Shown here piece by piece: positions 14,032 to 51,082 of a DNA stretch of 64,000 bases. The translations under genes and the position numbers were made by a program. The notes under the pieces are model-generated. The model saw only the letters and a list, made by a program, of their open reading frames with translations, was not told the origin of the DNA and ran no database searches. The stretch's first letter is position 1; every line of letters starts with the position of its first letter. This DNA is from Planctomycetota bacterium. Its GTDB lineage: Bacteria > Planctomycetota > MHYJ01 > JACQXL01 > JACRIJ01. The stretch lies in contig JACRIJ010000104.1 of the NCBI GenBank assembly GCA_016220095.1, forward strand, positions 1,763 to 65,762, read 5' to 3'.

Positions 14032-14139
14032 AGAATGAAGGACGTCGTCCAGTACTCGGGATCCTCCATGCAGCAATACCGGTATATGGCACGTTTAAAC
14101 AGGCCGCAGGCCGCGAAAAATGGGTTACAGAGTCGTTAT

Positions 14140-14155
14140 TGGCATAAATATTGCA
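14140..14155 (+). promoter_or_regulatory. Sigma-54 (-24/-12) promoter upstream of the cytochrome cluster
   Basis: TGGCAT-AAATA-TTGCA matches TGGCAY-N5-TTGCW. Confidence 0.75.
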
Positions 14156-14471
14156 TATATAGTAGACAGAATAAGTCGTTATAAGAAGGATGAGAGGTTC
14201 GGTGCCATGACATAATCGGCACAAAACGTAAAATGCGTGTATAACACATTATAATTCAATGCGTTATGTGTCAAACATGTCCAAACGTTCTTCAGCTTTT
14301 ACAATAAGCATCAATTATTAGACAGTTTGCATATTAACTCCATAGGACTTTTGGGGCATTTAACCCAGCGGTATTGGGTCTTTTGACCCAGTTTGGGGTA
14401 AAGCAAGAGTAAGAATGTTTTGATTTTTCCGAGAAATAGAAATTTTCAATGTTTTTTTAGGAGATGTTTCA

Positions 14472-15443
14472 ATGTTTACACAGAAATGGCTTTGGGGAAT
14501 TGGGATGCTCATTCTTGTGCTCGTATTTGCCACGCCTTCATTTGCTATGGTGCATGGCGCCGGCAATCTTGTATGCTACAAATGCCATACAATGCACGAT
14601 AGTATCGGCGGTGCTGATGTAGGTGCGGTAGGTCCGCAGGCGAATTTGTTGAGAGATGCCGGTACGGATCTCTGCCTGTCATGCCACAACGGTTCGTGGA
14701 ATGGCGGGGAACCTAATGTGTACAACGTTGGTGTTGACGAAGAAACGCCGGCTGGCGATTTCTACAGAGTTCGTTCAGCGGGCGGAGATTCCGGTTTGGG
14801 ACACAATCCCGTCGGAACGAACATTGCCGTTGACGGAACTTTGGCAACAGCGCCAGGCGGAACGTTTGCTTCTGCCAACCTGACATGTACGTCCTGTCAC
14901 GATGCCCACGCGACAGACGCCACGAAGTTTTTCGCGTATCGCAATCTGCTAAAGACGGTAAATACCGTGGATGTTAGTACGACAATAGGTTCAGGCAATG
15001 CGCAGGAAGCGGATGTTTATGACGAAGGCACAAACACCAATAACGCCATTTCCAACACGAATAAAAACGTGTACAGGACCGGTGCGGGACAATTTGGCGC
15101 GTGGTGCGGTACGTGTCACGGCTCATTCCACGGTGATGCATCCGATACGGATATTTATACCGGCGGTAAGTGGATCAGGCATCCTACGCATACGAACCTT
15201 ACCGCAGCTATGGTGACAAATTACAATGCGGTCAATACCAATTACATTTATACTTATCCGGTGCTTGACGGCGCAGGAACACTGACCGTTGCCGGCACAA
15301 GGGCAGTTGCCGCAACCGATAAGGTATTCTGCCTTTCATGCCACAACGCGCATACGAGCGCCAATGCAAACGCATTGAAGTGGAATTACGTTGATCAGTC
15401 AATAGCCTCGGATACAGCTTGCAACATGTGCCACGATAAATAA
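14472..15443 (+). CDS. omcS: OmcS-family hexaheme cytochrome c (candidate nanowire subunit)
   Basis: Signal peptide; six CxxCH; motifs colinear with G. sulfurreducens OmcS as recalled (CHTMHxSxGGA, TPxGDF, GHN, TAPGGT, AYRxL, WCxxCHxxxH, RHP, CLSCHxAH, terminal CNxCH). Confidence 0.85.
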   Translation: MFTQKWLWGIGMLILVLVFATPSFAMVHGAGNLVCYKCHTMHDSIGGADVGAVGPQANLLRDAGTDLCLSCHNGSWNGGEPNVYNVGVDEETPAGDFYRVRSAGGDSGLGHNPVGTNIAVDGTLATAPGGTFASANLTCTSCHDAHATDATKFFAYRNLLKTVNTVDVSTTIGSGNAQEADVYDEGTNTNNAISNTNKNVYRTGAGQFGAWCGTCHGSFHGDASDTDIYTGGKWIRHPTHTNLTAAMVTNYNAVNTNYIYTYPVLDGAGTLTVAGTRAVAATDKVFCLSCHNAHTSANANALKWNYVDQSIASDTACNMCHDK

Positions 15444-15470
15444 CGTGCAAAAGAAAAATTTATGAATAAC

Positions 15471-15516
15471 ACAACAGCACCAAGATTGGAAAAACCTTTT
15501 GGTGCTGTTGTTTTTT
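15471..15516 (+). terminator. Rho-independent terminator after the omcS-like gene
   Basis: 13-bp stem ACAACAGCACCAA/TTGGTGCTGTTGT followed by a T-tract. Confidence 0.8.
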
Positions 15517-15574
15517 ACAGGGGTAATCCCCAAAATGGATATTGTTCCCAAAAGCATAAACCACGCTTAAAAAC

Positions 15575-16495
15575 ATGAAAAAACTTATAAAAACAGCAGT
15601 ATTATTAATTATGATGGCGGCCGTCGTATTTGCCGCCGAACGGCCCGGGGTTGTTTTCGTTCTTACAAAAGAAAAAAACAAGTTCAAGCAGTTATCCGCA
15701 ATGATGGTTTTCGCAAAGGACAAGGAAATCTACTTATGCGATTCCGAGGCCCAGAACATAAGGATATTTACGTTTGACGGCGCCGAGCAGACATGGTTTT
15801 CCGTCAAAAGACCCGCAGGTGTAACGAGAGATTCCGGTGGAAACTTTTATGTCCTTGAAACGGACGATAACGGGAGTAATTTTATAGGCATATACGATAA
15901 TAAATTTCAGAAAAAAAATTCCATAAAAATAACCGATTCGCCTTTTCCGCCAACCGAAAAATTCAGCCAGATTGCGATTGATAATGACGATAAGCTTTAC
16001 ATAACCGACGAAGGCAATAAAGTTGTCCTGACGGTGTCGGTGGATGGGAAATACCTGCGGCATTTCGGAAAATTTCCTCAGGAGGAAAACGGCAAGACAC
16101 TTCCGTCGATATCGGACATATGTGTTGACGGGCAAAACAAGAAACTCTATATTGCGGACGCAATTTCCTCTAAAATATACGTTTATAAACTAAACGGCAA
16201 ATATCTTTTTGAATTCGGCAAAGGCGGCGGCATTATGGGCGAACTCAGCCAGCCCTGCAGTGTGGCCGTGGATGCCGACGAAAACGCTTACGTGCTTGAC
16301 AAAATGCGTCACACCGTTATTGTTCACGACAAGGCAGGCAAATTTATTTACGAAATAGGCGGCAAGGGCGAGGCAGAGGGATGGTTTTATTTTCCGAGAT
16401 ATATAGCGATAGACCCCGATAAAAATCTTTATGTACTTGAGAGCATGATTAACAGGTTCCAGGCGCTGACGATTGAAAAGAAAAATGAAAAATGA
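15575..16495 (+). CDS. Periplasmic NHL-repeat beta-propeller protein
   Basis: Signal peptide; GELSQPCSVAVD and GWFYFPRYIAID NHL repeats. Confidence 0.85.
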   Translation: MKKLIKTAVLLIMMAAVVFAAERPGVVFVLTKEKNKFKQLSAMMVFAKDKEIYLCDSEAQNIRIFTFDGAEQTWFSVKRPAGVTRDSGGNFYVLETDDNGSNFIGIYDNKFQKKNSIKITDSPFPPTEKFSQIAIDNDDKLYITDEGNKVVLTVSVDGKYLRHFGKFPQEENGKTLPSISDICVDGQNKKLYIADAISSKIYVYKLNGKYLFEFGKGGGIMGELSQPCSVAVDADENAYVLDKMRHTVIVHDKAGKFIYEIGGKGEAEGWFYFPRYIAIDPDKNLYVLESMINRFQALTIEKKNEK

Positions 16496-17456
16496 CTCGG
16501 GTATAGAAAAAATTATAATGGTTTTGTTGATGCAGGCTTTCTTCCTCGGAAGCATTGTTGCGGATCAGCCGCCGGATGCCGGAAAGCGTCCGGTACAAAT
16601 ACGGTTTTCGTATTCCATAGACGGCTACAGCCGGAACATGCCGTTCAATTCACCCGCCGCATTCTGCCTTGACGAAAAACATAACGAACTGCTGATAGCC
16701 GATACCGGCAATAATGCGATAGGCATTTTTGCCGCGGATACCGGCGAATACAAAGGCCGGCTTGATTCCGCCGTGCCCCTGCAGGCCCCTTGCGGCATAG
16801 CAATAGACGCTGAAGACAGTATTTACGTCGCCTGCAGTGACAGTTCCGTGATAGAGATATTTGATTTTAAAGGCACAAATCTGGGCGGCATAGACGTCTC
16901 AGGCGCCGGGCAGAAAACGCCCGTAAAGCCCGGCAAACTTTACTGGGATGGTTTGGCGGAAGAGCTTTATGTGATTGACCGCGCCAACCAACAGGTGCTT
17001 ATCTGCAAGGACAGGAAAGTCTGGCAGAAAATACAGCCGCTTTCCGCGGATGCCGCCGGCAATGCGGATTGGAAGAATGCCCCCATGTTGCAGGATATTG
17101 CCGTAGATGACTGCGGAAAAATATACGTAATCAGTTCCATCGGCAATGCGGTTGCCGTTTTTGACCGCAATGGAAGTCCTGTAACGTCTTTCGGCAGGCA
17201 CGGCGATACGGCGGATACGGTTTCTTTTCCTGTAGCTGTTTCTATTGATAAAAAAAACCGTTTATGGATAATAGATAACTTCCGCCATTGCATCACTGTA
17301 TTTGACGCCCAGGGGAAATACATAACGGCCTGCGGCGCGTACGGGGCCGATCATGGAAACTTGTTTTTCCCGGTGGATATAATAGTCAAGGATGGCGCGC
17401 TGTACGTTCTTGAAAAAGGCGCGGAACGGGTGCAGGTTTTTGCGATTGTAGAGTAA
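16485..17456 (+). CDS. Periplasmic NHL-repeat beta-propeller protein
   Basis: FNSPAAFCLD, IADTGNN, VSFPVAVSID and LFFPVDI repeats. Confidence 0.85.
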   Translation: MKNDSGIEKIIMVLLMQAFFLGSIVADQPPDAGKRPVQIRFSYSIDGYSRNMPFNSPAAFCLDEKHNELLIADTGNNAIGIFAADTGEYKGRLDSAVPLQAPCGIAIDAEDSIYVACSDSSVIEIFDFKGTNLGGIDVSGAGQKTPVKPGKLYWDGLAEELYVIDRANQQVLICKDRKVWQKIQPLSADAAGNADWKNAPMLQDIAVDDCGKIYVISSIGNAVAVFDRNGSPVTSFGRHGDTADTVSFPVAVSIDKKNRLWIIDNFRHCITVFDAQGKYITACGAYGADHGNLFFPVDIIVKDGALYVLEKGAERVQVFAIVE

Positions 17457-17472
17457 TTTTGTATCTGCGTGT

Positions 17473-20340
17473 ATGAATAAAAGCATTTTTTTAACAATTT
17501 CGGCAGTAGTTTTATTATTGCCCGGTGCGGCATTTGCCGGGGACTATCACCGTGTGTGGGCGACTTCTACCCTGGTTTGTTCCGATTGCCATACCCTGCA
17601 CGCGGGTTCCGTGCCGTATCCGGTACTGCTCAAATACGCTACGGTAAACGAACTCTGCGCGTCCTGCCATGACGGTACGGATACGAAGGCGCCCGATGTA
17701 ATATCACCGGTGACAATGTACACGGGTGATGAACATTCCGGGGCCGGATTTTTTGCAAATACCGGAGGTTCCGCGAGCGATGTCGCGCACGACCTCGGCG
17801 TGTCGGCCGCAATTCCCATGAGTACCAAGCCGGCGATGACCCTGATATGCACTACATGCCACGATCCTCACGGGAACGGTTATTACAGAAATCTTAAGCC
17901 TGATCCGGACGGAGATACAAGCAATATAACCGTTACCATAGGCACAAATATGTTTCAGCAGAATTCACCTCCGATACCGCCGAATGCGGCAACTGTCGCC
18001 GATGCATATAAGGAGTCAAATATCGGATATAAATCCAACATCTCTGCATGGTGCAGTCAATGCCATGATAAACTTGCCTCTAATCAGGCAGGCACTCTCC
18101 CTTCGCATTTCAAAAGGCATCCCGCAGATGTTCCGCTTAATTCTGCCGGATATCATGCGGATACGGCCAACTGGATTACAAATCCGCTTGGAAATCCGAC
18201 AAGCGGCGGCGGCGTTGCAACGGGCGATGCGGTATACGGAATTCCACGGCTTAGATACCAGGTAAGTACCGCGACGGACTATGCGAGCGCTAAAACAGTT
18301 GCCGTTTCCAATCAGGTATTCTGCGGATCGTGCCATACGGCGCACGGTATGAAATACCAGAAAAACCTCGTTTGGCCGTACAGGAAACAGACAGGAATTG
18401 ACAATACCGATGCCTTTGCCGCATGTCAGCAGTGTCATAACCAGTCATATTGGAGTGGTTCTCCGCACGGAAACACCACAACCGGCGTGGCGCGTACTTC
18501 TTCCAATCCCACAGGGGCATGCAACCAGTGCCATGATATGCACGATGATGTTACATCTTACAATTACGCGCTTTATACGACAAATACAAATTCATTGTGC
18601 TTTACAACAGGTTGTCATGTAAATGCCTCTGCCAGCTACCCCGCGCAGGAGGCGGATCGTAATGCCGTGGGATACTTTACGACAAAACGCTGGCCTGGCC
18701 AGACTTCTTATGAAAACGCCACGTACTCTCAACACTATCTGGACGCGGACTGTATTTATCCCGGCAAAAGCTATTCTGCCGGCGATTGTAAGAATTGCCA
18801 CGACCCTCACGGTTCAGCCAATACCTATGATATGACCCTGAATACATATATAGACGGCGGCGTTTATACGAATTATCAGCTATGTTTTGATTGCCATAAC
18901 GAAACTACCGGGCCTGCGGGCATGAACATTGCCGGGAAATATGTAAAAAACCTGTATAGCATCGCGGATAACCAATCTGGGCATCAGATACGTAATTCCG
19001 CAAAATCAGTTTCAAATTTTGCAGGTTCCAAACTTGCCATTGGCGATAAACTGCCCTGCTACGACTGTCACGGGCCCCACGGTTCAAAAGGCAATAACGG
19101 CACCCAGCCGAACAAGAAAATTCTGAGTGATCAGCGCACAGGATGGTCAAATCTTGATACGGCTGTCGCCGCGAATAACCGTACGTTCTGCCTTGGTTGC
19201 CACGTCGCGTCCAACGGGGTAGCCGGTTCAAATACCGTGGAAGGCATAGCCATGAATACCATACCGGTATTTCCGTCAACCGGATTCCAGCCGCACGCAA
19301 CAACGGGCACAGATTCATGCAGTGACTGCCATGGCGATAATTACACGAACAACACGGCGCGAAATGCCCATCATCCGGATAATTCGGATTGTAAATTCTG
19401 TCATAATGCCGCGCAGGGCTCGCACAGGCAGGTAGTGCAGAACGGCGGTACGGGCGGCGATTTTGACGATACTACGCATCATATCGGGGATGTTGTGGGC
19501 ACGGAAAATGTTACGAATGCCGACTGTGTCATGTGCCATAAGCAAAGCAATCATCCATATACAACGGATGCCACGACAATCTACCTGAGAAACGTTGATA
19601 CCGGTGCGGCAATTACTTACGTAAGGGGAGACACCTCTTCGGCAAACCTGACGAATCTTGACAATTTTTGTCTTGCATGTCATGACGCTGCCGGCGCTAA
19701 TGGCGACACTACACCATTTTCGGATAATGCCGTTGCTCTGGATGTAAATGCTCAATTTAACACGGCAAATCCATCCCATCACGCCGTTAAAGGCGCAAGA
19801 TATACGCCGGCCGGCGCATCCGGTATTCTCGCAGCCGCGTTTGTTAACGGCTGGGCCGACAATAGCACCCTTCACTGCAGTGATTGCCATTGCACGGCAA
19901 CTAATGCGCACGGAGACGGCAAGGCTGTTGCAAGCAGGCCGTCTTTGATTAAAGGGTACACGTCGGGAACGGTCTATCCCGGCGGCACTGCCGGCGTTGA
20001 CGGGTACATCTGTTTTTTATGCCATGGTTACCTTACGTATGATACGCCTAATATAACGACACCGAATAATTCCAGGTTTGACCATAACGCGAATGGCGGA
20101 CATGCTACAAAGGATGTTTACAGGGGAATCTATTGTCTTGTATGCCACGGTGGATATGTTAAGGGTTATATACATGGAGAAAACGATACATCGGATATAA
20201 ATATAATGCAACATTTTCTGTCCGGCGCGGCTTTGCGCAGTTGGCAGAGATCCGGGGCAAATGAAAGCTGTAATACGACAGGCAGTATATCGGCATGTTC
20301 CCAGCATAACGGGGGCAAAACGTACGGTTATAATTACTAA
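17473..20340 (+). CDS. Extracellular multiheme cytochrome c (18 CxxCH + 1 CX4CH) with an N-terminal OmcS-like hexaheme domain
   Basis: Signal peptide; first six motifs colinear with 14472-15443; rich in T/N/G/A. Confidence 0.88.
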   Translation: MNKSIFLTISAVVLLLPGAAFAGDYHRVWATSTLVCSDCHTLHAGSVPYPVLLKYATVNELCASCHDGTDTKAPDVISPVTMYTGDEHSGAGFFANTGGSASDVAHDLGVSAAIPMSTKPAMTLICTTCHDPHGNGYYRNLKPDPDGDTSNITVTIGTNMFQQNSPPIPPNAATVADAYKESNIGYKSNISAWCSQCHDKLASNQAGTLPSHFKRHPADVPLNSAGYHADTANWITNPLGNPTSGGGVATGDAVYGIPRLRYQVSTATDYASAKTVAVSNQVFCGSCHTAHGMKYQKNLVWPYRKQTGIDNTDAFAACQQCHNQSYWSGSPHGNTTTGVARTSSNPTGACNQCHDMHDDVTSYNYALYTTNTNSLCFTTGCHVNASASYPAQEADRNAVGYFTTKRWPGQTSYENATYSQHYLDADCIYPGKSYSAGDCKNCHDPHGSANTYDMTLNTYIDGGVYTNYQLCFDCHNETTGPAGMNIAGKYVKNLYSIADNQSGHQIRNSAKSVSNFAGSKLAIGDKLPCYDCHGPHGSKGNNGTQPNKKILSDQRTGWSNLDTAVAANNRTFCLGCHVASNGVAGSNTVEGIAMNTIPVFPSTGFQPHATTGTDSCSDCHGDNYTNNTARNAHHPDNSDCKFCHNAAQGSHRQVVQNGGTGGDFDDTTHHIGDVVGTENVTNADCVMCHKQSNHPYTTDATTIYLRNVDTGAAITYVRGDTSSANLTNLDNFCLACHDAAGANGDTTPFSDNAVALDVNAQFNTANPSHHAVKGARYTPAGASGILAAAFVNGWADNSTLHCSDCHCTATNAHGDGKAVASRPSLIKGYTSGTVYPGGTAGVDGYICFLCHGYLTYDTPNITTPNNSRFDHNANGGHATKDVYRGIYCLVCHGGYVKGYIHGENDTSDINIMQHFLSGAALRSWQRSGANESCNTTGSISACSQHNGGKTYGYNY

Positions 20341-20343
20341 ATA

Positions 20344-21339
20344 ATGTTTTCGAAAATAATAAATAAACTCGCAATAATAATATTAATTGCCATCGCGGTG
20401 TTTCTGACAGTATTTGTGCTTTCTCCGCAGTGTTCCTTTGCGCCGTATTTTACGGGAGAAAAAATACGCCGGTGGTTTTTCATCGTGCTTGTTGCCGCTC
20501 TTTATATCGTTCTTACATTTTGTACGGTAGACCGTATATGGCGGCAGGTCAGGAGCAAATATAACAGCCCTTCCTGGTGGGGATCCATAATTTTTCATGC
20601 GAGTTTTTATGTAATAGTAACAGGCGCATGCATCAGTATAGGCGGAAGAAAAACAGGCCTGGAACTTTTTACGGAGAGCGAAACCGTAATTTTTTCAGAA
20701 AACAATTATCTTTTGCATGACCGGCCGCCTTTCGCAGTAAAATTGAACAGGTTTTTGCCCGTATTTGAAAACGACATGCCGGTTGATTACGCCTGCGATT
20801 TTTCAGTTTATTACGATACGGCAGAAGGATGGATGCAGGCAAGGAAGTCCGGCTTGAAGGTCAACATGCCCCTTGAAGAACAAGGGGTGTCTTTGGTGTT
20901 TAAGCGCTGGGGCTATTCCCCGAGGATTATAATTCGGGACAATGAATACAACGAAATTATCGGCATGTTTAACCTTAATCTCGGCGAAAAAATTGAGAAC
21001 GGGAATCCGCAAAAATTTTTTACCGATTTCACCAGCGTGCCAAATACCAATTTGAAATTGGAATTAAAATTTTATCCGGAAATGGAGAATGGGAAACATG
21101 TGCCCGCGTATACGGCGAGAAACCCCCGCATATACGCGAAATTGTATTCCGGCAAACGGGTTTATGTTGATGGTTATATTGCAATGAAAGAATCGCTTGT
21201 TTCCGATACGCTGACCCTTACATTTGACGATTTTAATTACTGGGTCGGCGTTGAGGTTGTCAACGACATCGGAGAAAACATTGTCTTTGCCGGTTTTGTA
21301 ATTGCCGTAATAGGATTGGCATTTAGAATGCTTTTTTGA
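20344..21339 (+). CDS. ResB/CcsB-like cytochrome c biogenesis protein
   Basis: TM helices with WGSIIFHASF, LKVNMPL, C-terminal DIGENIVFAGF TM; adjacent to ccsA. Confidence 0.75.
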   Translation: MFSKIINKLAIIILIAIAVFLTVFVLSPQCSFAPYFTGEKIRRWFFIVLVAALYIVLTFCTVDRIWRQVRSKYNSPSWWGSIIFHASFYVIVTGACISIGGRKTGLELFTESETVIFSENNYLLHDRPPFAVKLNRFLPVFENDMPVDYACDFSVYYDTAEGWMQARKSGLKVNMPLEEQGVSLVFKRWGYSPRIIIRDNEYNEIIGMFNLNLGEKIENGNPQKFFTDFTSVPNTNLKLELKFYPEMENGKHVPAYTARNPRIYAKLYSGKRVYVDGYIAMKESLVSDTLTLTFDDFNYWVGVEVVNDIGENIVFAGFVIAVIGLAFRMLF

Positions 21340-21385
21340 ACCAAACATTGAACTTAATTGAACCGGATTGAACAACGTTGAACAA
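21336..21385. repeat. TTGAAC tandem array (5 copies)
   Basis: ttgaaccaaacattgaacttaattgaaccggattgaacaacgttgaac. Confidence 0.65.
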
Positions 21386-21394
21386 TTTTAATAT

Positions 21395-22219
21395 ATGACA
21401 AACTTGGAATTAATATTATTAAAAATTACAATAGGTCTTTACCTGGTAAGTAGCCTGTGGCTGGCTGGCGGTTTTATTTTTAACCGTGAAAAATTAAGAA
21501 AATTTTTTGCATTGCCGGTATTAATCGCCCTTGCGGCGCATACGGCGGTGATTATTGTGCGCTGGAGCGCCACGGGCCACGGCCCGGTGATGAAGGACTA
21601 TGAAAACGCCCTGCTTGGCGCCTGGTTGACGGTGGCTTTATATTTACTGTTGGTATTCAAATGGCGCGAAATGGCCGTTATAGGCATAGTTATAGCCCCG
21701 CTCGCCATGCTCCTGCTCGGGTACGCGTTTATGACGGAACCAGTCCTGGAGCGGCTTTCGCCGGGGTATAAATCCTTTTGGCTTTACGTGCACGTATTTA
21801 CCGCATGGCTTGCGTTCGGCGCTTATGCGATCGCGTCCGGATTTGCAGTTGCGTTTTTTATGCGCGGTCATTATGACAAAAAATCCGTACAAACGAAAAT
21901 TCCAGAGTTGTCTGAACTTGATTTGACCGCGTTTCGCATAGTCCTTTTCGGATTTATACTGCACGCAATAATGATAGCCGCGGGTTCCATTTGGGCGGCA
22001 AAATTGTGGGGGAGCTACTGGTCGTGGGACCCGATAGAAACATGGTCGCTGATATCCTGGCTTTGCTACGGGATAATAATCCATTTGCGATTGGCCTTTG
22101 CCTGGAAAAATCAGAGGTTTGCCGTGATGATAATGCTGGCGCTTGTGACGGTTATAATAGCCTGGTTAGGAATAAACTGGATACCGTCAAGCGACCATGT
22201 ATTCAGCAAGTTGGAATGA
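21395..22219 (+). CDS. ccsA: System II cytochrome c synthase CcsA/ResC
   Basis: WWD motif WAAKLWGSYWSWDPIETWS; WLYVHV; C-terminal SDHVF His. Confidence 0.92.
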   Translation: MTNLELILLKITIGLYLVSSLWLAGGFIFNREKLRKFFALPVLIALAAHTAVIIVRWSATGHGPVMKDYENALLGAWLTVALYLLLVFKWREMAVIGIVIAPLAMLLLGYAFMTEPVLERLSPGYKSFWLYVHVFTAWLAFGAYAIASGFAVAFFMRGHYDKKSVQTKIPELSELDLTAFRIVLFGFILHAIMIAAGSIWAAKLWGSYWSWDPIETWSLISWLCYGIIIHLRLAFAWKNQRFAVMIMLALVTVIIAWLGINWIPSSDHVFSKLE

Positions 22220-22260
22220 TTACGGATTCTAAGATTGAAAGATTTTGAGATTGGAAGATT
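22219..22260. repeat. 8-nt xxxAGATT array
   Basis: gattacggattctaagattgaaagattttgagattggaagatt. Confidence 0.7.
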
Positions 22261-22267
22261 ATTGAGA

Positions 22268-26232: not shown

Positions 26233-26237
26233 GGAGT

Positions 26238-26822
26238 ATGCTGATGATAAGAAATTATTTGCAAGGCGCTATAAAACAGGCAATGATTATACCGTTCCTG
26301 GTCATATTGATTGGTTGCAGCAGTGTTTCAAATTCAGCCTATCTTCATCCTGAATTTGATATGGCCGCAGTACGCAAGGTTGCCGTTGTTACATTTGCAA
26401 ATTATTCCAAAGAACCCATGGCCGGCGAAAAAGTGACCAATATGTTTTTTACCCAGCTTCTCAGCACAGGGCTTTTTGACGTGTCGGAACCGGCAAGGAC
26501 CGAGGAGATCATTAAGAAACACAAAAACGGCTCTGGTATTGATTTGCTTGTCATGCAGAAAATGAAGGAATCATTGAATATCCAGGCAGTTTTTATGGGA
26601 TCTGTGGATGAATATTCTTTTGCCTCCTTCGGCAGTAAAACCTATCCGCTTGTCACAATTTCCGCCCGGCTCGTGGATTGCGAAACAGGCACGATACTTT
26701 GGACGTCTACAATTACAGGTGACGGATCATCGTCCGTTCCGGTGCTGAATATTGGCGCGATAAAAACACTGCCGGAACTTGCACAGGCACTGTGTGTCAG
26801 GATTGTGAGCACTATAAAATAA
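26238..26822 (+). CDS. PelC/CsgG/DUF799-like lipoprotein
   Basis: Lipobox LIGC; VAVVTFANYS, GSVDEY, ISARLVDCETGTILW. Confidence 0.75.
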   Translation: MLMIRNYLQGAIKQAMIIPFLVILIGCSSVSNSAYLHPEFDMAAVRKVAVVTFANYSKEPMAGEKVTNMFFTQLLSTGLFDVSEPARTEEIIKKHKNGSGIDLLVMQKMKESLNIQAVFMGSVDEYSFASFGSKTYPLVTISARLVDCETGTILWTSTITGDGSSSVPVLNIGAIKTLPELAQALCVRIVSTIK

Positions 26823-26832
26823 GGGATAAAAC

Positions 26833-27591
26833 ATGAAAAAAAAATATCTGTTATTTTTGCTTTTTAATGCCGTTCTGTTTGCGCCGGGCGGATGTAGAAC
26901 ATCCAATGTAGTTTCTTCCGCTTCACAGCCTGCGGAAATAGACGCTTTTTACGTCAGAAGGATTGCCGTTGTGCCGTTTGACAACCTTACCGGTCTTCCG
27001 AACGATGCAGGCAGAAAAATTACAAATACACTCGTGGCGGATGTTTATTCCCGGAATGCGTTTGAACTTCTTAACAGCGGTGAATTGGAAGGCTTTCTTA
27101 CGGATGAAAGGATACGCTATTCTTCCGATTTTACCATGCAGAAAACACAGAAACTCCTTTCCAAATACAATGTGCATGCCGTGCTTCTCGGCAGTATCAA
27201 TGAATATTCCTACGCAAGCGCGGGTACGGAACAGCTTCCGGTAATAAGCATTTCCGCAAGGATGCTTGATACGCGTACGGCAAAAATAATATGGGCGTAC
27301 AATGTAACTGCCGAAGCGCGCGAAACGGCATTCGGATTGGGTTCTATAAGAAGCCTCGCTAATTTGACAGAACTTGCGATTAATGATATAGTTGACAGTT
27401 TAATTGCGGCAAAATCCGAAACCGCCTTATCCGGCAGTCAGGGTGCGGATGCCGTGCAAACGGATAGGAGTACGCCTGAAAATCCAAATGTGCAATCGTC
27501 CATAATAATTATAGATGAAAGTGAAAAAAATTATACCAGGGAAAAATCCAAAGAATATTGGTATAAAATAGTCAAAGACTACAAAAAATAG
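26833..27591 (+). CDS. PelC/CsgG/DUF799-like lipoprotein (paralogue)
   Basis: PGGC; IAVVPFDNLT, GSINEY, ISARMLDTRTAKIIW. Confidence 0.75.
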   Translation: MKKKYLLFLLFNAVLFAPGGCRTSNVVSSASQPAEIDAFYVRRIAVVPFDNLTGLPNDAGRKITNTLVADVYSRNAFELLNSGELEGFLTDERIRYSSDFTMQKTQKLLSKYNVHAVLLGSINEYSYASAGTEQLPVISISARMLDTRTAKIIWAYNVTAEARETAFGLGSIRSLANLTELAINDIVDSLIAAKSETALSGSQGADAVQTDRSTPENPNVQSSIIIIDESEKNYTREKSKEYWYKIVKDYKK

Positions 27592-27600
27592 CATTATAGA

Positions 27601-29289
27601 ATGAGAAAAAATACTATGAAAAAAACAATTCCTCTTTTGATAACTGCCATGCTTGCGGTAACAGTAATGGCGTTGCTTTCGTCTCCATCGCCTGCGCAGA
27701 TTGGCAAATCCTGTCTTGACTGTCATAAGGATATCAGCCTTCTTTTAAGCGAAAAAAACGTGCACCCCCCGTTCAATGTGAATTCCTGTGATTCCTGCCA
27801 TGATACTACCACGCATGGTCAGATGGTGGAAAACGGCCCCGCATTGTGTCTGACCTGTCACGATGGGATAAAAAAAGAAACCGGTTCGCACTTTCCGCAT
27901 TCGCCCGCAGAAAGCAACTGCCTGTCCTGCCATAATCCGCACGCATCGGCGAATTCCAAGCTTCTCATCAAACCTCAGGACCTGCTGTGCACTTCCTGTC
28001 ATGACGGCATTACGAAAAAATTAGCCGAAAAACACCTGCATGAGCCGTTTAAATCAAAAGATTGCCTGTCATGCCATAAACCCCACGGCAGTGATACGCC
28101 GCATTTGCTTACGGAAAAAACGCCCGGTTTGTGCACGCAATGCCATGACACATCCGATAAAACCATTGCGTCTGCGCATAAAGATATTTCTATAAAAAAT
28201 TCAAATTGTCCAGTCTGTCATAATCCGCACTCTTCTTCGGAGCCGAAGCTGATAGAAAAAAACCAGCACTATCCTTTTGAAACCGGCAATTGCGCTTCCT
28301 GCCATAAACAGAATGCGGACAGAATAGAACTTATTATGCCTGCGGATAAACTTTGCCGTACGTGTCACGGCAAAATCGGCAACGAACCGGAAAAAACATA
28401 TCATCATTCGCCTGCGGAAAGCGGTGAATGCCTGTCCTGTCACAATCCGCACGCAACGTCCAGGAAAAAACTTCTTAATGATGAAATTAACCCCGTATGT
28501 TTCTCCTGCCATTCTGACAAGCAGGAGCTTCTTGGCAAAGAAATCGTGCATCAGCCGTTTAAAAACGATTGCACGGCCTGCCACAGTCCGCATTCGTCGG
28601 CGCTTGCCGGACTGATAAAAAAGAACGCGGTAGACCTGTGCGGTACATGCCACGCGAATCTGCCGCTGGAATTCGCAAAAAAAACCGTGCATTTTCCGTT
28701 TAAAAACGGTTCCTGCATGTCCTGTCACAATCCCCATGCGTCATCAACGAACGGACTTCTCAAAAAAAACCAAAAGGAATTGTGCCTTGAATGCCATCTT
28801 GATATAAAAGCCAAGCTTGTGGCAAAACGGACGCATTCCGGCACAGGCGGAGATTGCACCGATTGCCATTTGCCACATAGTACGGAAACAGAATCTTTGC
28901 TTAATATTGATAAGGAATTGTCCTGTTTTTCCTGCCATCCGAAAGAGGATTTTACTGACAAAAAATACCAGCATTTTCCCGTTATGAAAAACAAATGCCT
29001 TACATGTCACGATCCGCATGGAACGGATTTCAAGGCAAACCTGAAAAAATCGGTAAATGATACCTGTACCCAATGCCATCCCGCACGGCATAAGGAATTC
29101 GTGCACTCCGTGGACGCATTGCCGTCCGAAAAAATTGATATGTCAGCCGAGGATAAAACCCGGCTTGACGCGGAGGGAAGGCTTTCATGCGTCTCCTGCC
29201 ATAGTCCGCACGGTTCCAGGAACCCGTTTTTCCTTATTGACGAAATGACGCAAGGACAGCTCTGTTACAGGTGCCACAAACAAAACTGA
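27601..29289 (+). CDS. Periplasmic doubled-CXXCH multiheme cytochrome c (22 CxxCH)
   Basis: Signal peptide; repeating HxP..CxxCHxPHxS...LCxxCH units; manual count 22. Confidence 0.92.
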   Translation: MRKNTMKKTIPLLITAMLAVTVMALLSSPSPAQIGKSCLDCHKDISLLLSEKNVHPPFNVNSCDSCHDTTTHGQMVENGPALCLTCHDGIKKETGSHFPHSPAESNCLSCHNPHASANSKLLIKPQDLLCTSCHDGITKKLAEKHLHEPFKSKDCLSCHKPHGSDTPHLLTEKTPGLCTQCHDTSDKTIASAHKDISIKNSNCPVCHNPHSSSEPKLIEKNQHYPFETGNCASCHKQNADRIELIMPADKLCRTCHGKIGNEPEKTYHHSPAESGECLSCHNPHATSRKKLLNDEINPVCFSCHSDKQELLGKEIVHQPFKNDCTACHSPHSSALAGLIKKNAVDLCGTCHANLPLEFAKKTVHFPFKNGSCMSCHNPHASSTNGLLKKNQKELCLECHLDIKAKLVAKRTHSGTGGDCTDCHLPHSTETESLLNIDKELSCFSCHPKEDFTDKKYQHFPVMKNKCLTCHDPHGTDFKANLKKSVNDTCTQCHPARHKEFVHSVDALPSEKIDMSAEDKTRLDAEGRLSCVSCHSPHGSRNPFFLIDEMTQGQLCYRCHKQN

Positions 29290-29294
29290 ATATT

Positions 29295-29744
29295 ATGAAA
29301 AAAAATATTAAAATCATTACATTATTGGCGGCAATTATCATTGCGATTGCCGCGGCTTTTTTTGCATTCGTGTTTGATAAGCCGGTTTCCTATAAGAACG
29401 GGGTTAAATCCGTTTCCATAACTGTAAAACACGAAATGTATAAGAATTTTTCGGAATCTCACACACTTAAGCCTGGAGAGCAGGTTTATATTCATGATAC
29501 GAATTATGTTTTTGTTATTACGGATTTTATGCCTGATTTCAGGATAAAAAGGCAGACTGGTGAAGCGTATTCCAGAACCGATGCGCCCGATAATCCCGCC
29601 GTAAAAATCGCGCTCTATGTTGAAAATGAAAAATTGGATGAAGCCTGGTATATCCTGAAAAAAAAGGATTATTATAAGGTATTTAAACCCGGCATTTATT
29701 TCGTTATAGATAATATCGTTTACGGAGACACCAAGTATGAATAG
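29295..29744 (+). CDS. Membrane-anchored hypothetical protein resembling a ResB periplasmic subdomain
   Basis: N-terminal TM; DFMPDF...SRTDAPDNPAVKI motif. Confidence 0.6.
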   Translation: MKKNIKIITLLAAIIIAIAAAFFAFVFDKPVSYKNGVKSVSITVKHEMYKNFSESHTLKPGEQVYIHDTNYVFVITDFMPDFRIKRQTGEAYSRTDAPDNPAVKIALYVENEKLDEAWYILKKKDYYKVFKPGIYFVIDNIVYGDTKYE

Positions 29745-31692
29745 AAAAAGACTCTTTATTTTTACAGTTCTTACGGCCTTTCTCTGCGCGGCATTTCTGC
29801 AATCGTGCCAGAACGGCACCAGGCCTGCGCCGAAAAAGAAAACATGCATGGAATGCCACGCGCATGAGAATATGCAGGATTTGATGAATAAAAAAGTTGT
29901 CCATGCGCCGTTCAAATCCCAGGATTGCGAATCTTGCCATGAAAGGCATTTATTCGGCGACAAATTGAAATTGAAACATTGGGACAGTAAGCTGTGTGCA
30001 AATAGCGAATGCCACGCCGATTATGCCTCTGATGCCAAGAAAGCGGTTTCCGAGGCGGTACATCCGCCTTACGCTAACTCGCCCTGCTGGCAGTGCCACT
30101 CTCCGCATGCCTCGGATTATCCGAAACTGTTGAAGGCGAAATCGCCCGACATGTGTTACGAGTGTCATGATAGAAGTGCGTATTCCGCGCAAAACGCGCA
30201 TACGCCGGTTAAAGAAGGCAAATGCCTGTCATGTCATGCCGCCCATGAGTCTAATAACAAAGGGCTTCTTCAAAAACCTGTAAACCAGATATGCGCCGAT
30301 TGCCATGATACGGGCACGGACAAAATGAAAACTGCGCATAATAACTTTAATATTTCCAAAAGCGCTTGCTCTTCCTGCCATACGCCGCATTCGTCCGCAC
30401 AAAAAGCCCTGTTAAAAAATACCGTTCACGCGTTTATTTTGGATAAAAACTGCGTTTCATGCCATGCGGATCCTTTGGCGCCGGAAAAACTGGTTAAACC
30501 CGTTAAAGAACTCTGTCTGTCCTGCCATGATAAACAAACAAATGAACTTTCGGATAAACATATACATAAGCCGTTCATTGACGATGATTGCCTGAAATGC
30601 CACGCCGCACATGCTTCGCAGACGGAAAAACTCCTTATTCTGCCCGTAAGCTCACTTTGTATTTCATGCCATAAACAGGAAACTACGCCCGATATGGCAC
30701 AGCATAAGCCGTATATGTCCGGAGATTGTTTGTCATGCCACAAGGCTCATTCAAGCGGCCAGTCGAAACTTGTGAAAGATAATCTTGAGCAAAACTGCGT
30801 CTCATGTCACGCATCCGTGACGGAAGAGCGGAAAAAATCCCATGTGCATAGTCCGTTTGGCGGGGATTCATGCCTTCAATGCCATAGTCCGCACCAGTCA
30901 AAATATAAATTCATATTAAAACAGGAACCTGGCAAATTATGTGCCGAATGCCACGAGGAAACCGTTGCGGGTGGCAGGAAAGAGACTTATCAGCATACGC
31001 CTTTTTATAATCAGAATTGTTTTACCTGTCATTCCGGCCATGCCGCGGATTATAAGGCTTTGCTTGTTAAAAAGGAAAAAGAATTATGCATGGATTGCCA
31101 TAAGAACAGTGCGTCTGAACTTATGGCGTCTTATCAGCATACGCCGGTTAAAAATGGCGAATGCTCGTCCTGTCACAATCCGCATAGTTCCAATATAAAA
31201 AACTATCTGAAAAAATATAAAGAGGCATTATGTTTCGATTGCCATCCGAAAATTACCGAAGAGCTTAAACAGTCCTCCAGGCACCAGCCCGCATTGCAGG
31301 GAGACTGCATAAAATGCCATTCTCCGCATGGTTCCGAAATCGAAAATCAGCTCCGGCGCGCGGATATGGGGTTGTGCACCCAGTGCCATCCCAACGTCGC
31401 AAAAGAGCTCCAAAAGAAATTTCCTCACCAGCCCGTGAAGGACGAAGAATGCCTTGAATGCCATTCTCCGCATGCATCAGCGCATGAAGCCCTTATGTCA
31501 GAGCCGGCCCCGGAACTTTGCCTGAAATGCCATAAACCGGACGCGGTTTTTACCGCCGCGCACAGGAATTTTGACGTGAAAAAGACAGACTGCCTGCAGT
31601 GCCATACGCCACACGCCGCGGACCAGAAAGGCCTGCCGCTGTCCCATCTGCATAAGCCGTATAAGGACGGGGATTGCTCGGAGTGCCACTGA
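29737..31692 (+). CDS. Lipoprotein doubled-CXXCH multiheme cytochrome c (25 CxxCH + 1 CX4CH)
   Basis: Lipobox LQSC; manual count, includes CANSECH. Confidence 0.92.
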   Translation: MNRKRLFIFTVLTAFLCAAFLQSCQNGTRPAPKKKTCMECHAHENMQDLMNKKVVHAPFKSQDCESCHERHLFGDKLKLKHWDSKLCANSECHADYASDAKKAVSEAVHPPYANSPCWQCHSPHASDYPKLLKAKSPDMCYECHDRSAYSAQNAHTPVKEGKCLSCHAAHESNNKGLLQKPVNQICADCHDTGTDKMKTAHNNFNISKSACSSCHTPHSSAQKALLKNTVHAFILDKNCVSCHADPLAPEKLVKPVKELCLSCHDKQTNELSDKHIHKPFIDDDCLKCHAAHASQTEKLLILPVSSLCISCHKQETTPDMAQHKPYMSGDCLSCHKAHSSGQSKLVKDNLEQNCVSCHASVTEERKKSHVHSPFGGDSCLQCHSPHQSKYKFILKQEPGKLCAECHEETVAGGRKETYQHTPFYNQNCFTCHSGHAADYKALLVKKEKELCMDCHKNSASELMASYQHTPVKNGECSSCHNPHSSNIKNYLKKYKEALCFDCHPKITEELKQSSRHQPALQGDCIKCHSPHGSEIENQLRRADMGLCTQCHPNVAKELQKKFPHQPVKDEECLECHSPHASAHEALMSEPAPELCLKCHKPDAVFTAAHRNFDVKKTDCLQCHTPHAADQKGLPLSHLHKPYKDGDCSECH

Positions 31693-31737
31693 ACGAATTT
31701 GAGATTTCAAATTTGAGATTCGTTATAAGGAGTTTAT

Positions 31738-33012
31738 ATGAAAAAAATCGCAATTGTTTCAGTATTGCTCGGTTCAACAGCAATGCTGATAGGCATTTCG
31801 CTCGCGCAGGAGGCGAAGCCTAAAGACAATATCGCTGAAATCTGCTACGGGTGCCATAAGGAACTCAGGGAATCCTTCGCCGGTAAAACTATGCACAAGC
31901 CGGTGGAAAAAGGGAATTGCACTGCCTGCCATAATCCGCACGCGTCCAAAGCCGAACATCTTATGAAGAAAACCGAATCCAAAACATGCCTTGCGCAGGA
32001 ATGTCACGCAGGACAAAAGGAACTTTTTGGCCGCGCCTTTCAGCATACGCCGGTTAAAAACGGTCAATGTTCTCCATGTCACGAACCGCACGCGTCTAAA
32101 GAAAAACACATGCTGAAAAAGGCGTCCATGGAAATATGTGCCGATTGCCACAATATTAAAAAAATGGCTGGAGACAAGACGGTCCTGCACGGACCTTTCA
32201 GGGATGGTCAGTGCCTCGCCTGCCATGACGCGCATTCGGGGAATTATTCCGGAAACATAATAAAAAAGAACGTGGATATCTGCACCGCATGCCACGCGGC
32301 AAACGACAAATTAAAAGAAAAACACGACCAGTTTGATATGTCTGCCGTGGACTGTACGATATGCCATTCACCGCATTATAGCGGTTATCAAAACATGCTC
32401 AAAGCGGTCGTGCACAAGCCGGTTGGCGAGAAGGCATGCGATAAATGCCATGAGAACCTGACAGGCAATAAACCTGACCCGAAAAAACTTGTTAAACCAG
32501 TGCCCGATTTGTGCTTTGAATGCCATGATAAAAAGAGCCATTCCGCTTCCAATGTGCATAAGCCTGACCAGGACGGCAATTGTCTTACATGCCACGAAGT
32601 GCACGCGTCTGATTTCAAACACTTGCTTAACCAGCGTACGCCGGATTTGTGTTTCAAATGCCACAAGGGAATGGAAAGGTTCGTAAAGATGCAGTATCCG
32701 CATAATCCGGTGATGAATGGCGAATGCAATGCCTGTCATTCGGCGCATTCGTCGGAAAACAAGAAACTTCTTGTTGATATGGACTATACAAAAATGTGTA
32801 TGGCTTGCCACAAAAAGCGTGACACGCACCCCGTGGACAAGATCGCGTCAAACACCATAGAAACATTTGAAAATTCACTGGTTAAACTTGATGCCAATCG
32901 TAAAGTGGTCTGCATCTCCTGCCATAATCCGCACGGGAGTGACGAGGAAAACATTCTGCACTACAACAAGGAAAGGGATTTGTGCATACAATGCCATAAG
33001 AAGGAACGTTAA
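31738..33012 (+). CDS. Periplasmic doubled-CXXCH multiheme cytochrome c (15 CxxCH + 1 CX4CH)
   Basis: Signal peptide; manual count, includes CLAQECH. Confidence 0.92.
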   Translation: MKKIAIVSVLLGSTAMLIGISLAQEAKPKDNIAEICYGCHKELRESFAGKTMHKPVEKGNCTACHNPHASKAEHLMKKTESKTCLAQECHAGQKELFGRAFQHTPVKNGQCSPCHEPHASKEKHMLKKASMEICADCHNIKKMAGDKTVLHGPFRDGQCLACHDAHSGNYSGNIIKKNVDICTACHAANDKLKEKHDQFDMSAVDCTICHSPHYSGYQNMLKAVVHKPVGEKACDKCHENLTGNKPDPKKLVKPVPDLCFECHDKKSHSASNVHKPDQDGNCLTCHEVHASDFKHLLNQRTPDLCFKCHKGMERFVKMQYPHNPVMNGECNACHSAHSSENKKLLVDMDYTKMCMACHKKRDTHPVDKIASNTIETFENSLVKLDANRKVVCISCHNPHGSDEENILHYNKERDLCIQCHKKER

Positions 33013-33059
33013 AAACCCGCTTGCTTTTTCCTGTTTTTTCTTATACACTCTGTATAATT

Positions 33060-33407
33060 ATGGCAATACCGTTACTGCTGGTCATAAATAATTTCCTCCA
33101 CGATTTTTCTGCCGCCATGCTGTTATGTTCGGCAATATGCATCTGGCTGGTAAGGCGGAACTTCCACGGCGATGCAGGCGGCGTATCATCAGTTATTGCG
33201 CGAAATATTACAAGCAAACTGTCCCTGATATTCTATTTGTCGCTTGGGTTTGTCGTTATCGGAGGTGCGATTCGCGCCTGGGCGTATCGTACTTATGAAT
33301 GGATTACGCCCCTGGGACAGTCGCAGGTTACGGTACTTATAGTTAAACACGCTCTTTTTGCCGCGTGTTTGCTTGTCGCGGTTTATATAGTGTTGAAAAA
33401 AAAATAA
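33060..33407 (+). CDS. Small membrane protein (3 TM)
   Basis: NNFLHDFSAA...IVKH; upstream TTGCTT-N17-TACACT. Confidence 0.65.
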   Translation: MAIPLLLVINNFLHDFSAAMLLCSAICIWLVRRNFHGDAGGVSSVIARNITSKLSLIFYLSLGFVVIGGAIRAWAYRTYEWITPLGQSQVTVLIVKHALFAACLLVAVYIVLKKK

Positions 33408-33580
33408 GGAAAAGTTTGAGTTGCAATTTACCCCGCTTTACTGAACCATTATGTATTAGCGTGAAAGAGGAGATGAGTGATTCTTGGTGAAATAATCGGC
33501 TTCTTGATATTTACAACAGTTTTCTTAGCTGTAACTTCGTGTCTTCGGGCCTTCGTGGCAATAAATAGTTGTTGTTTTGC

Positions 33581-51065: not shown

Positions 51066-51082
51066 AGTTTTCCGGAGAGCAG

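Follow-up and report, generated by a model that had tools for sequence, protein, structure and literature searches.

The closest described counterpart of the gene cluster treated here is the omcS-osc region of Geobacter sulfurreducens (GSU2504-GSU2494), which encodes the filament-forming cytochrome OmcS and a set of accompanying Osc proteins. According to a passage of PMC13194489 that relays Shen et al. 2025, OscC is OmcS-like, OscH is associated with folding, OscE, OscF and OscG with secretion and OscD with morphology, and the osc cluster is widespread. A section of PMC13712944 reports large beta-barrels from most OmcE and OmcS regions and describes a porin-like mounting model. Another parallel is the uet cluster of 'Candidatus Tenderia electrophaga', in which, on the account consulted of 10.1101/2022.05.06.490989, genes for multihaem cytochromes stand with those for two NHL proteins, a beta-barrel and a CcsA/CcsB pair of its own that adds to the housekeeping maturation apparatus. 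The locus in question is a run of fifteen genes on a contig of a groundwater planctomycete.

The DNA that was analysed, here called the window, is 64,000 nucleotides long and corresponds to positions 1763-65762 of contig C78 (66,715 bases) of the host genome, G000 (GCA_016220095.1). The G, L and C codes denote the genomes, OmcS loci and contigs of this analysis and the phylum and order names are the labels attached to them, whilst genes are numbered g01 to g15 in cluster order and coordinates are window positions. The preferred reading of the stretch 14472-33407, at a probability of about 65%, is that its 15 genes form a single operon-like unit on the chromosome, which belongs as a divergent member to the omcS/osc 'cytochrome nanowire' class and works by the mechanism proposed below.

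Gene content and order of the cluster

Judged by its protein sequences, the cluster is homologous in content and order to the omcS/osc-type clusters of Desulfuromonadales-labelled and many other genomes, as a first-pass annotation of the same DNA had supposed, and it is a divergent member of that type. A pattern search of species-representative genomes returned at least 599 stretches, at least 568 of which encode an OmcS relative, with three other Planctomycetota-labelled genomes among them. Synteny was counted in the best 80 loci, which carry 15 phylum labels, and as these have a median length of 14.5 kb, with 19 loci shorter than 8 kb, the counts are lower bounds. When the window proteins were searched against these loci by tblastn, 43 loci gave matches to NHL proteins, 40 to giant cytochromes and 30 to lipoproteins, with 20 loci matching all three, and for individual genes homologues lie near OmcS genes in 37 (g02), 41 (g03), 27 (g09) and 28 (g10) of the 80.

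Gene order was compared with the omcS-osc region through two Desulfuromonadales-labelled loci, L077 and L046, and not through the G. sulfurreducens sequence. In both of these the order is copies of OmcS, a YncE-like propeller, a protein of 727-765 residues without a Pfam family, a lipoprotein, a double lipoprotein, a SurA-like peptidyl-prolyl isomerase (PPIase) and a 26-haem cytochrome, which fits the Osc roles as far as the passage of PMC13194489 sets them out. Features shared by the cluster with the omcS-osc region, so far as that region is described in the portions of the literature consulted, are an OmcS-family subunit accompanied by a second OmcS-like paralogue (OscC there), beta-propellers, a large protein in the OscE position, PelC-like lipoproteins in the OscF and OscG positions and the 26- and 16-haem cytochromes OscI and OscJ. 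In G026, a genome of the same class as the host but of another family, nearly the same gene set occurs in nearly the same order, with g12 and g15 included.

The fifteen genes all lie on the + strand with an intergenic spacing of -23 to 131 nt, and are bounded by gaps of 440 nt upstream and 161 nt downstream. The first-pass annotation had described an apparently complete and self-contained OmcS-type locus of 13 genes between 14140 and 33012. Its open reading frames (ORFs) and their order agree with the ORF list, whereas the number does not, since its own enumeration sums to 14 and g15 is a fifteenth gene that lay outside its finding; likewise, the start at 14140 falls within the upstream gap, the first gene beginning at 14472. 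That g15 belongs to the cluster is argued by its conservation with the S-adenosylmethionine (SAM) radical enzyme elsewhere and by its start, 8 nt past g14. The features, with the haem-binding motifs and main matches of each in brackets, are as follows.

14032-14471, no strand: upstream gap, the largest around the cluster and a probable promoter region
14472-15443, +: g01, OmcS-family hexahaem cytochrome of 323 residues with a signal peptide, a short core form (6 CXXCH; PDB 6ef8)
15575-16495, +: g02, secreted NHL beta-propeller (PF01436, 5.5e-16; PF17170, 3.4e-13)
16473-17456, +: g03, second NHL beta-propeller, start codon uncertain, overlapping g02 by 23 nt (PF01436, 6.7e-17)
17473-20340, +: g04, 19-haem fusion in which an OmcS-like hexahaem domain at 1-325 is followed by a middle part with 6 haems and a C-terminal part with 7 (18 CXXCH and 1 CX4CH)
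20344-21339, +: g05, short ResB/CcsB-like protein of 331 residues (PF05140, 5.3e-16, profile positions 152-448 of 486)
21395-22219, +: g06, CcsA-type haem lyase subunit of System II (PF01578, 7.4e-38; WWD motif at 205)
22235-23752, +: g07, cytoplasmic B12-binding radical SAM protein, BchE-like (PF02310 and PF04055; CX3CX2C at 223)
23749-26232, +: g08, putative outer-membrane barrel, OscE-like and interrupted at about 205-500 by an NHL propeller (OscE-position profile, 4.2e-21; NHL, 3e-36)
26238-26822, +: g09, PelC-like lipoprotein with lipobox LIGC (CsgG, GNA1162 and LpoB Pfam matches; PDB 5t11)
26833-27591, +: g10, second PelC/GNA1162-like lipoprotein (PF03783, 1.9e-6)
27601-29289, +: g11, 22-haem doubled-CXXCH cytochrome with a signal peptide (22 CXXCH; PF09699, 2.7e-109)
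29271-29744, +: g12, N-terminally anchored protein of 157 residues, possibly with a ResB-like periplasmic domain (single homologue; Atlas structure lead)
29737-31692, +: g13, 26-haem cytochrome with lipobox LQSC in the OscI position (25 CXXCH and 1 CX4CH)
31738-33012, +: g14, 16-haem cytochrome in the OscJ position (15 CXXCH and 1 CX4CH)
33021-33407, +: g15, polytopic membrane protein of 128 residues with two invariant histidines (H27, H110), a radical SAM partner (alignment of 13 homologues)

A scan with Pfam and NCBIfam recovered the OmcS-like hexahaem protein, the NHL propellers, ResB, CcsA, the B12 radical SAM protein, two CsgG/GNA1162-like lipoproteins and three doubled-CXXCH cytochromes, and together with the motif counts it upholds the 19-haem fusion, the 22-, 26- and 16-haem cytochromes and the two lipoproteins of the earlier description. 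The hand count given there, 86 CXXCH and 3 CX4CH, was reproduced exactly and corresponds to 89 haem sites in all, because the CX4CH sites in g13 and g14 stand opposite a CXXCH in orthologues. The upstream gap holds one sigma-70-like site (14207-14234, score 10/12), of a kind that is no commoner in the sequence than in shuffled sequence. As the counts of the promoter and terminator scan did not rise above those of shuffles (49 against 39.3 +/- 5.9 and 24 against 25.5), no operon boundaries were drawn from them.

Subunits, export proteins and the proposed nanowire

When g01 was compared with the PDB the sole match at E<=1 was OmcS (6ef8, E 3.6e-14), in three stretches that span query residues 28-307, and the hidden Markov model (HMM) of the family matches it with 3e-107, so the OmcS-like hexahaem protein of the earlier description was correctly recognised. 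In an alignment of g01 with 29 homologues the twelve cysteines and the six proximal histidines are invariant, as are the distal histidines H28, H111, H146, H237 and H294, whilst H42 is present in at least 90% of them; hence all six distal histidines of a bis-His ligation pattern are kept, as assigned by alignment only. By these alignments g01 is a true OmcS-family hexahaem cytochrome. In the numbering of the 6ef8 chain, H42 (C35-H39-T-M-H42, CHTMH) corresponds to OmcS His16 and C287-LSC-H291 to the OmcS motif that ends in His332, and Wang et al. 2019 reportedly found that OmcS His16 ligates the haem of the His332 motif in the neighbouring subunit. Since both elements have their match in g01, the residues for OmcS-type polymerisation appear to be present.

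The second OmcS-like domain occupies residues 7-324 of the 955-residue g04 (family HMM, 8.2e-52). In a FastTree tree of 115 OmcS-like ORFs it sits in a separate starred clade with rows labelled G026 and Zixibacteria, whereas the group that holds g01, together with three G026 copies and three of a Poribacteria-labelled genome, is weakly supported (89, not starred). The protein is regarded as a fusion because the domain and the multihaem part that follows it are two genes in G026, L057, L042 and L055. Its last third is, by sequence, related to heptahaem OmcS-family proteins, ORFs of which (see below) match residues 636-899 (E 1.8e-7) and 732-806 (E 1.7e-6). A triple OmcS repeat was also considered for g04 and was rejected, as the strong family match is confined to the first third; the remainder gives fragments with E-values of 3e-7 to 0.08, and other doubled-CXXCH cytochromes give the same. 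The tree also contains two OmcS-like ORFs from L013, a 2.2-kb contig titled Nonomuraea sp., which is probably mis-binned since its ORFs cluster with Acidobacteriota-labelled rows.

Two NHL propellers and a barrel had been named in the first-pass annotation. The propellers are indeed g02 and g03, but NHL repeats are carried by a third protein, g08, which is the one that had been called a barrel. By sequence g08 is shown to belong to the family that occupies the OscE position, since an HMM built from 13 such proteins matches it in two blocks, 22-205 and 532-743, with the NHL propeller between them. The family comprises 30 proteins in 29 of the 80 loci; the insert is found elsewhere only in the protein of G026 (1/30). 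Outer-membrane barrels usually end in F, Y or W, and this is so for 26 of the 30 proteins; the last residue is F in 22 of them, as it is in g08. A profile search of the PDB with the g08 family matched NHL proteins only, and the Atlas model of g08 resembles clusters of 683-775 residues (template modelling (TM) score 0.54-0.59), one of them automatically named an outer-membrane protein, which is a lead only.

Comparison of their sequences shows that g09 and g10 are PelC-like lipoproteins homologous to the proteins in the OscF and OscG positions, which they match in L077 with E-values of 6e-15 to 1e-5. In the PDB, g09 matches 5t11 (6e-8), 5t10 (9.7e-8) and PelC (9h80_C, 4.3e-5), the first two of which, listed as 'Uncharacterized protein', are assumed here to be PelC homologues, and the weaker matches of g10 (0.0081-0.1) are led by 5t11 (0.0081) and 4hrv (0.012). 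The OscG-position protein of L077 unites both, its residues 27-183 matching g10 and 278-423 matching g09. The arrangement, with PelC-like lipoproteins (g10 only weakly so) encoded right after a putative barrel, is similar to that of PelB-PelC polysaccharide export; it differs in that the cargo here would be a haem protein and not a polysaccharide, and a lipoprotein ring and its contact with g08 are presumed.

The two largest cytochromes of osc-type clusters also have their counterparts here, g13 and g14 being shown by sequence comparison to be orthologues of the 26- and 16-haem proteins. g13 is 32% identical to the 26-haem ORF of L046 over its full length (3.3e-99), and its 31 orthologues carry 26 (or 42) motifs, none of them a CX4CH. 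Amongst the 18 orthologues of g14, 17 have 16 CXXCH and one has 15 plus a CX4CH at another site. The CX4CH of g13 aligns with CXXCH in 8 orthologues and that of g14 in 7, with a two-residue insertion in each case, which by alignment makes them lineage-specific variants of real haem sites. g11 is 41% identical to its G026 orthologue in the same position. In 7 of the 31 orthologues of g13 (at L017, L023, L029, L042, L047, L048 and L080) a single ORF of 1012-1499 residues with 42 CXXCH unites the 26- and the 16-haem cytochrome.

In the proposed mechanism the apocytochromes would be exported by Sec, and a dedicated System II lyase formed by g05 and g06, perhaps with g12, would load the 89 haems, in part or in full. 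A periplasmic wire made up of the 22-, 26- and 16-haem proteins would be fed by a donor in the inner membrane. The g08 barrel, closed towards the periplasm by a ring of g09 and g10 in the way that PelC caps PelB, would let the OmcS-like subunit out or anchor it, with the NHL propellers taking the role of the OscD propeller. Outside, g01 would form a head-to-tail polymer in which His42 ligates the C287-H291 haem of the next subunit, as with OmcS His16. Filament formation by g01 and its cluster is inferred only.

Several observations weigh against this reading. The Osc letters were given to the genes of L077 and L046 by position only and from a second-hand passage. No PPIase or rotamase domain was detected in any of the 16 ORFs scanned and tblastn searches of the host genome with the two OscH-position proteins returned no match; PPIC domains of the host occur only on contigs C128 and C49, and a PPIase lies near OmcS in 24 of the 80 related loci. 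Within the cluster there is no YncE-type propeller, the L077 propeller finding a single weak match in the host genome, on C99 (7.8e-5), and no recognisable inner-membrane quinol oxidase. The subunit itself is short, with about 298 residues in mature form against 407 in OmcS, is without five loops seen in Geobacter-type sequences, and stands distant from the Desulfuromonadaceae-labelled copies in the FastTree tree. Finally, the barrel fold of g08 is putative, being suggested by an Atlas model with a predicted TM score of 0.41 and by the C-terminal aromatic residue.

Because a PPIase, a YncE-type propeller and a quinol oxidase were not seen, the words 'complete' and 'self-contained' of the first-pass annotation are unsupported. 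Relative to the omcS-osc region, the cluster is without an OscH-type PPIase and has NHL in place of YncE-type propellers, one of them inserted in the OscE-like protein. It has two single-domain lipoproteins where one single and one double protein are found there, an extra 22-haem cytochrome, an OmcS-like paralogue fused to 13 more haems and a subunit shorter by about 110 residues, and the genes for ResB, CcsA, the radical SAM protein, g12 and g15 have been added.

Some of these same differences would suit a non-filamentous extracellular conduit, in which single OmcS-like subunits or small oligomers are docked on the g08 barrel and the NHL propellers at the cell surface, in a porin-cytochrome-like manner, without a wire of micrometre length. 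g01 is reduced to a minimal core, lacks the long Geobacter-type loops and falls in a different part of the family tree, the covalent link between the OmcS-like domain of g04 and 13 further haems is hard to fit into a homopolymer, and the OscH-type chaperone is absent from the cluster. Moreover, in the parts of PMC12545173 and PMC13712944 that treat polymerisation within the OmcS family, it is backed by structure for G. sulfurreducens OmcS only and is predicted for DA_402, a cytochrome of Desulfurivibrio alkaliphilus. Such a conduit is nonetheless considered somewhat unlikely, as g01 keeps the His16 equivalent and exactly 12 conserved ligand histidines for its 6 haems and the whole export set of barrel and PelC-like lipoproteins is conserved.

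Whether electrons leave by mineral reduction or are taken up is not readable from sequence. The same hardware could work inwards, with Fe(II), a reduced mineral or a partner cell as the electron source, and since nothing in the sequence fixes the direction, this has to be weighed along with the origin of the host from groundwater and with the comparable uet cluster of the Tenderiales, whose NHL propellers, barrel, PPIase and own CcsAB are assigned to uptake in the part of 10.1101/2022.05.06.490989 that deals with them. That cluster differs, on the same account, in having a PPIase and a cupredoxin and in being without an OmcS-family subunit or radical SAM protein. The studied relatives, G. sulfurreducens OmcS and D. 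alkaliphilus DA_402, are on the other hand tied to Fe(III) oxide reduction in the literature passages at hand, and uptake is provisionally judged unlikely, a little more so than the non-filamentous conduit. The preferred reading is that of an omcS/osc-type nanowire locus, of which the maturase and radical SAM genes added to the common plan are the most interesting part.

The haem lyase and radical SAM module

The earlier description had remarked that the locus adds its own maturases and a B12 radical SAM enzyme, and the domain matches bear this out. g05 (PF05140, 58.9 bits) is encoded directly upstream of g06 (PF01578, 130.8 bits), which has the WWD motif WGSYWSWD at 205 and reaches 163.6 bits with TIGR03144 against a cut-off of 187.6. 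As another pair of CcsA and ResB-like proteins is encoded on C74 of the host genome, g05 and g06 are seen as an extra, cluster-borne lyase. This is similar to NrfI, CcsA1 and CcsA2 of Wolinella succinogenes, presumably substrate-dedicated System II lyases, in that the second CcsA/ResB pair stands beside the cytochromes that it presumably serves and the other pair elsewhere; it differs in that no link to a special haem motif was found in the present comparison, G026 having cluster-borne CcsA genes with a canonical CXXCH at the g13 site. The CX4CH motifs were tried as the reason for the extra CcsBA and rejected, since the G026 orthologue of g13 has 26 canonical CXXCH despite those CcsA genes and since the 31 g13 orthologues are free of CX4CH with or without CcsA in the flank.

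The small protein g12 has no Pfam or NCBIfam match and a single homologue, in G026 (3.3e-19), where it comes directly after a second CcsA. Its Atlas model resembles the periplasmic part of ResB (TM score 0.62) and DUF2155 (0.58-0.59), which is again a lead only.

The radical SAM motif of g07 is CTNHCAFC. Against the BchE profile TIGR02026 the protein scores 407.9 bits (6.7e-122), below the cut-off of 481.35, with HpnJ next at 126.8 bits (1.1e-36) and with further matches to HpnR and to methyltransferases of ribosomally synthesised and post-translationally modified peptides (RiPPs). By these scores g07 is a BchE-like class B radical SAM protein and is not BchE. It has in common with BchE, the anaerobic Mg-protoporphyrin IX monomethyl ester cyclase, the B12 and radical SAM domains, residues 17-480 aligning with profile positions 1-460 of 497, whereas it lies under the cut-off, is encoded beside a haem lyase and has no photosynthesis context visible in the window.

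Orthologues of g07 are few amongst planctomycetes, with one in 300 other Planctomycetota genomes sampled (G215, 48% identity) and one in G026 (59% identity), which lies outside that sample. They were found in two of five OmcS-bearing genomes tested from other phyla, G318 and G321, and within the order of G318, which is Desulfobulbaceae-labelled, in 22 of 151 genomes. In 8 of these 22 a CcsA gene lies within 1.5 kb of the radical SAM gene, and in 9 a homologue of g15 does. The neighbourhoods of 15 of the 22 could be followed for up to about 9 kb on each side and contain CcsA in 10, a recognisable ResB as well in 4 and ORFs with at least 5 haems in 10, the recurring order being heptahaem cytochrome, ResB, CcsA, (g15) and radical SAM. 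As the genomes are kin within one order, these counts overstate independence, and the three phylum labels are the stronger point: CcsA and the radical SAM protein are also linked in G026 and in the host, and in the Nitrospirae-labelled G321 they lie about 5.5 kb apart on one contig.

The OmcS-family HMM covers each of the 8 heptahaem ORFs examined over almost its whole length, with E-values of 1e-15 to 1e-7, and these ORFs may correspond to DA_402 of D. alkaliphilus. In the section of PMC12545173 devoted to it, DA_402 is a heptahaem OmcS-like cytochrome induced more than 100-fold on ferrihydrite, and is thus an OmcS-family protein outside Geobacter, predicted to polymerise, with the same haem number as these ORFs; no radical SAM protein or dedicated CcsBA is mentioned there in connection with it.

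The third partner, g15, has an homologue directly upstream of the radical SAM gene in G026 and one on the same contig in G321. Seven residues, H27, D28, G82, R85, L106, K109 and H110, are invariant in 13 homologues, the sole family signal is a weak CopD-like one, below cut-off in 6 of the 13 members, and a PDB profile search with the family returned nothing meaningful. Taken together, these comparisons show that a module of ResB, CcsA, radical SAM and a two-His membrane protein is found repeatedly next to OmcS-family cytochromes, with three phylum labels represented. The radical SAM protein is an accessory that OmcS-type systems do not require, because the Desulfuromonadales-labelled genomes G320 and G322 are without an orthologue of g07.

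The company kept by these genes suggests a modification directed at haem or at a cytochrome, since a radical SAM protein resembling a porphyrin enzyme adjoins a haem-exporting lyase and a membrane protein with two histidines. A serious contender, put at somewhat less than even odds, is that g07 and g15 are unrelated to haem and cytochromes, have a lipid, a peptide or a cofactor other than haem as their target and simply accompany CcsA. The substrates of B12 radical SAM proteins are very diverse, as the matches to HpnJ, HpnR and the RiPP methyltransferases illustrate, 5 of the 15 neighbourhoods have no CcsA within about 9 kb, and OmcS is found without g07 in G320 and G322. BchE, however, is by far the top family for g07, and the substrate of BchE itself is a porphyrin; the proximity of CcsA in the G318 order is repeated in G026, G321 and the host, and g15 keeps its two invariant membrane histidines. 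Moreover, in G215, another planctomycete, the radical SAM gene (L094, G215:C10 157-9489) is flanked by genes for a 1230-residue protein with 11 haem motifs and an NHL propeller and for two AhpC/TSA-TPR proteins, followed by a 15-haem cytochrome, with no OmcS-like gene seen in 20 kb. A single pathway could be imagined from the haem-directed alternative, in which haem would be altered in the cytoplasm by g07 with g15 and would then pass through the cluster's own System II lyase to some of the OmcS-family proteins, here g04 and in the G318 order the heptahaem cytochromes. This full scheme is quite unlikely as it stands; if true, it would mean a new covalently bound haem variant or a cytochrome modification that tunes conductive cytochromes in at least three phyla. 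In the literature found on CcsA/CcsB, multihaem cytochromes and radical SAM proteins, BchE is not mentioned together with these.

Host, novelty and significance

The host assembly amounts to 3.59 Mb in 132 contigs, with 91% completeness and 0.12% contamination. GyrA, LigA and AtpA are encoded in the same window as the cluster, and amongst 120 listed matches of GyrA an organism is named in 17, without exception Planctomycetes/Planctomycetota, Scalindua, Scalinduaceae or Wujingus (62-69% identity), Scalindua and Wujingus being Brocadiia. From these matches the host is a planctomycete, just as the first-pass annotation had read from GyrA. An anammox host was considered and no sign of one was seen, PF18582 (HZS_alpha) being unmatched in the host genome and in 15 genomes of the same order; the family is a poor anammox marker, as Bacteroides also gives matches and G021 and G023 hold it in many copies.

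It is very improbable that the cluster is not the planctomycete's own and that the contig is chimeric or mis-binned. Such an origin might be thought of because OmcS relatives are rare in the phylum, occurring in 1 of 30 relatives of the host and 2 of 300 other Planctomycetota genomes sampled, and because two internal joins between the independent contigs of a groundwater run overlap by merely 24 and 10 nt. Those contigs, however, tile 13700-33699 with 0 differences at an even depth of 10.5-13.6 and reach beyond both ends, one of them starting 5.7 kb ahead of 13700 and continuing to 21608, another extending 683 nt past 33699; runs X2 and X3, with small shares (0.06) and short pieces, were left out for habitat. 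No RNA run was listed for 14140-20340, which speaks neither for nor against expression. The two joins lie inside intact g06 and g11, whose neighbours are syntenic in G026, and the nearest cluster is in that same-class genome. As the groundwater run may be the source of the assembly, the tiling argues against mis-assembly and not against mis-binning, which is answered by GyrA, LigA and AtpA on the same contig. The contig shows no sign of chimerism, the check that the earlier description had asked for. The patchy occurrence, together with the mixed phylum labels in the tree, fits lateral spread from a donor that is not nameable from these sequences.

Other genes of the window and the host genome were noted in passing. 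A sensor histidine kinase and a sigma-54-dependent response regulator (2062-4913, +) are encoded about 10 kb upstream of the cluster, and a 1446-residue secreted FG-GAP-repeat protein (7673-12013, +) lies in a stretch of low GC content (0.39 at 10-12 kb) and is followed by a secreted protein of 196 residues without a family. Downstream, 161 nt past g15, comes a UbiA-family prenyltransferase (33569-34279, +), the top family of which is EboC (144 bits against a cut-off of 250), with a weak match to haem o synthase (8e-10); it is possibly truncated, as only positions 2-181 of the 292 of the profile are covered. Directly downstream (34738-36455, +) are flavodiiron (flavorubredoxin-like) and Dps/ferritin-like proteins, genes of oxygen/NO and iron stress. 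The lowest GC content of the window (0.36-0.38) is found at 50001-54000, with a strong positive GC skew and five short co-oriented ORFs. The host genome holds 19 ORFs with at least 3 CXXCH, including a second multihaem cluster on C42:1442-14856, of seven co-oriented ORFs with 4, 9, 16, 9, 11, 8 and 15 CXXCH, and further ORFs on C81 (10 and 13 haems), C76 (14), C22 (13) and C113 (7).

As regards novelty, the cluster type is already published and widespread, and extracellular electron transfer clusters with their own CcsAB have a precedent in uet. No OmcS cluster in Planctomycetota is described in those parts of the literature on OmcS with Planctomycetota, Brocadia or anammox and NHL that were available, and the novelty would be lower if, as may be, Planctomycetota or the radical SAM module already appear in Shen et al. 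2025 or its supplements. What is new here is, above all, the conserved module of CcsBA, g15 and the BchE-like radical SAM protein, and besides it the fusion of barrel and NHL propeller, the 19-haem fusion with its OmcS-like domain and the lack of a PPIase.

The finding places omcS/osc-type machinery in a groundwater planctomycete, within a phylum of which few of the genomes sampled have it, and so adds to the kinds of organism that may be wired to minerals. With its short subunit, its propeller within the putative barrel and no dedicated PPIase, the cluster is also a compact natural variant from which the minimal needs of such systems may be gauged. Most useful is the recurrent module of CcsBA, BchE-like radical SAM protein and two-His membrane protein under three phylum labels, which, if it alters haem or a cytochrome, would represent a new step in cytochrome c biogenesis.

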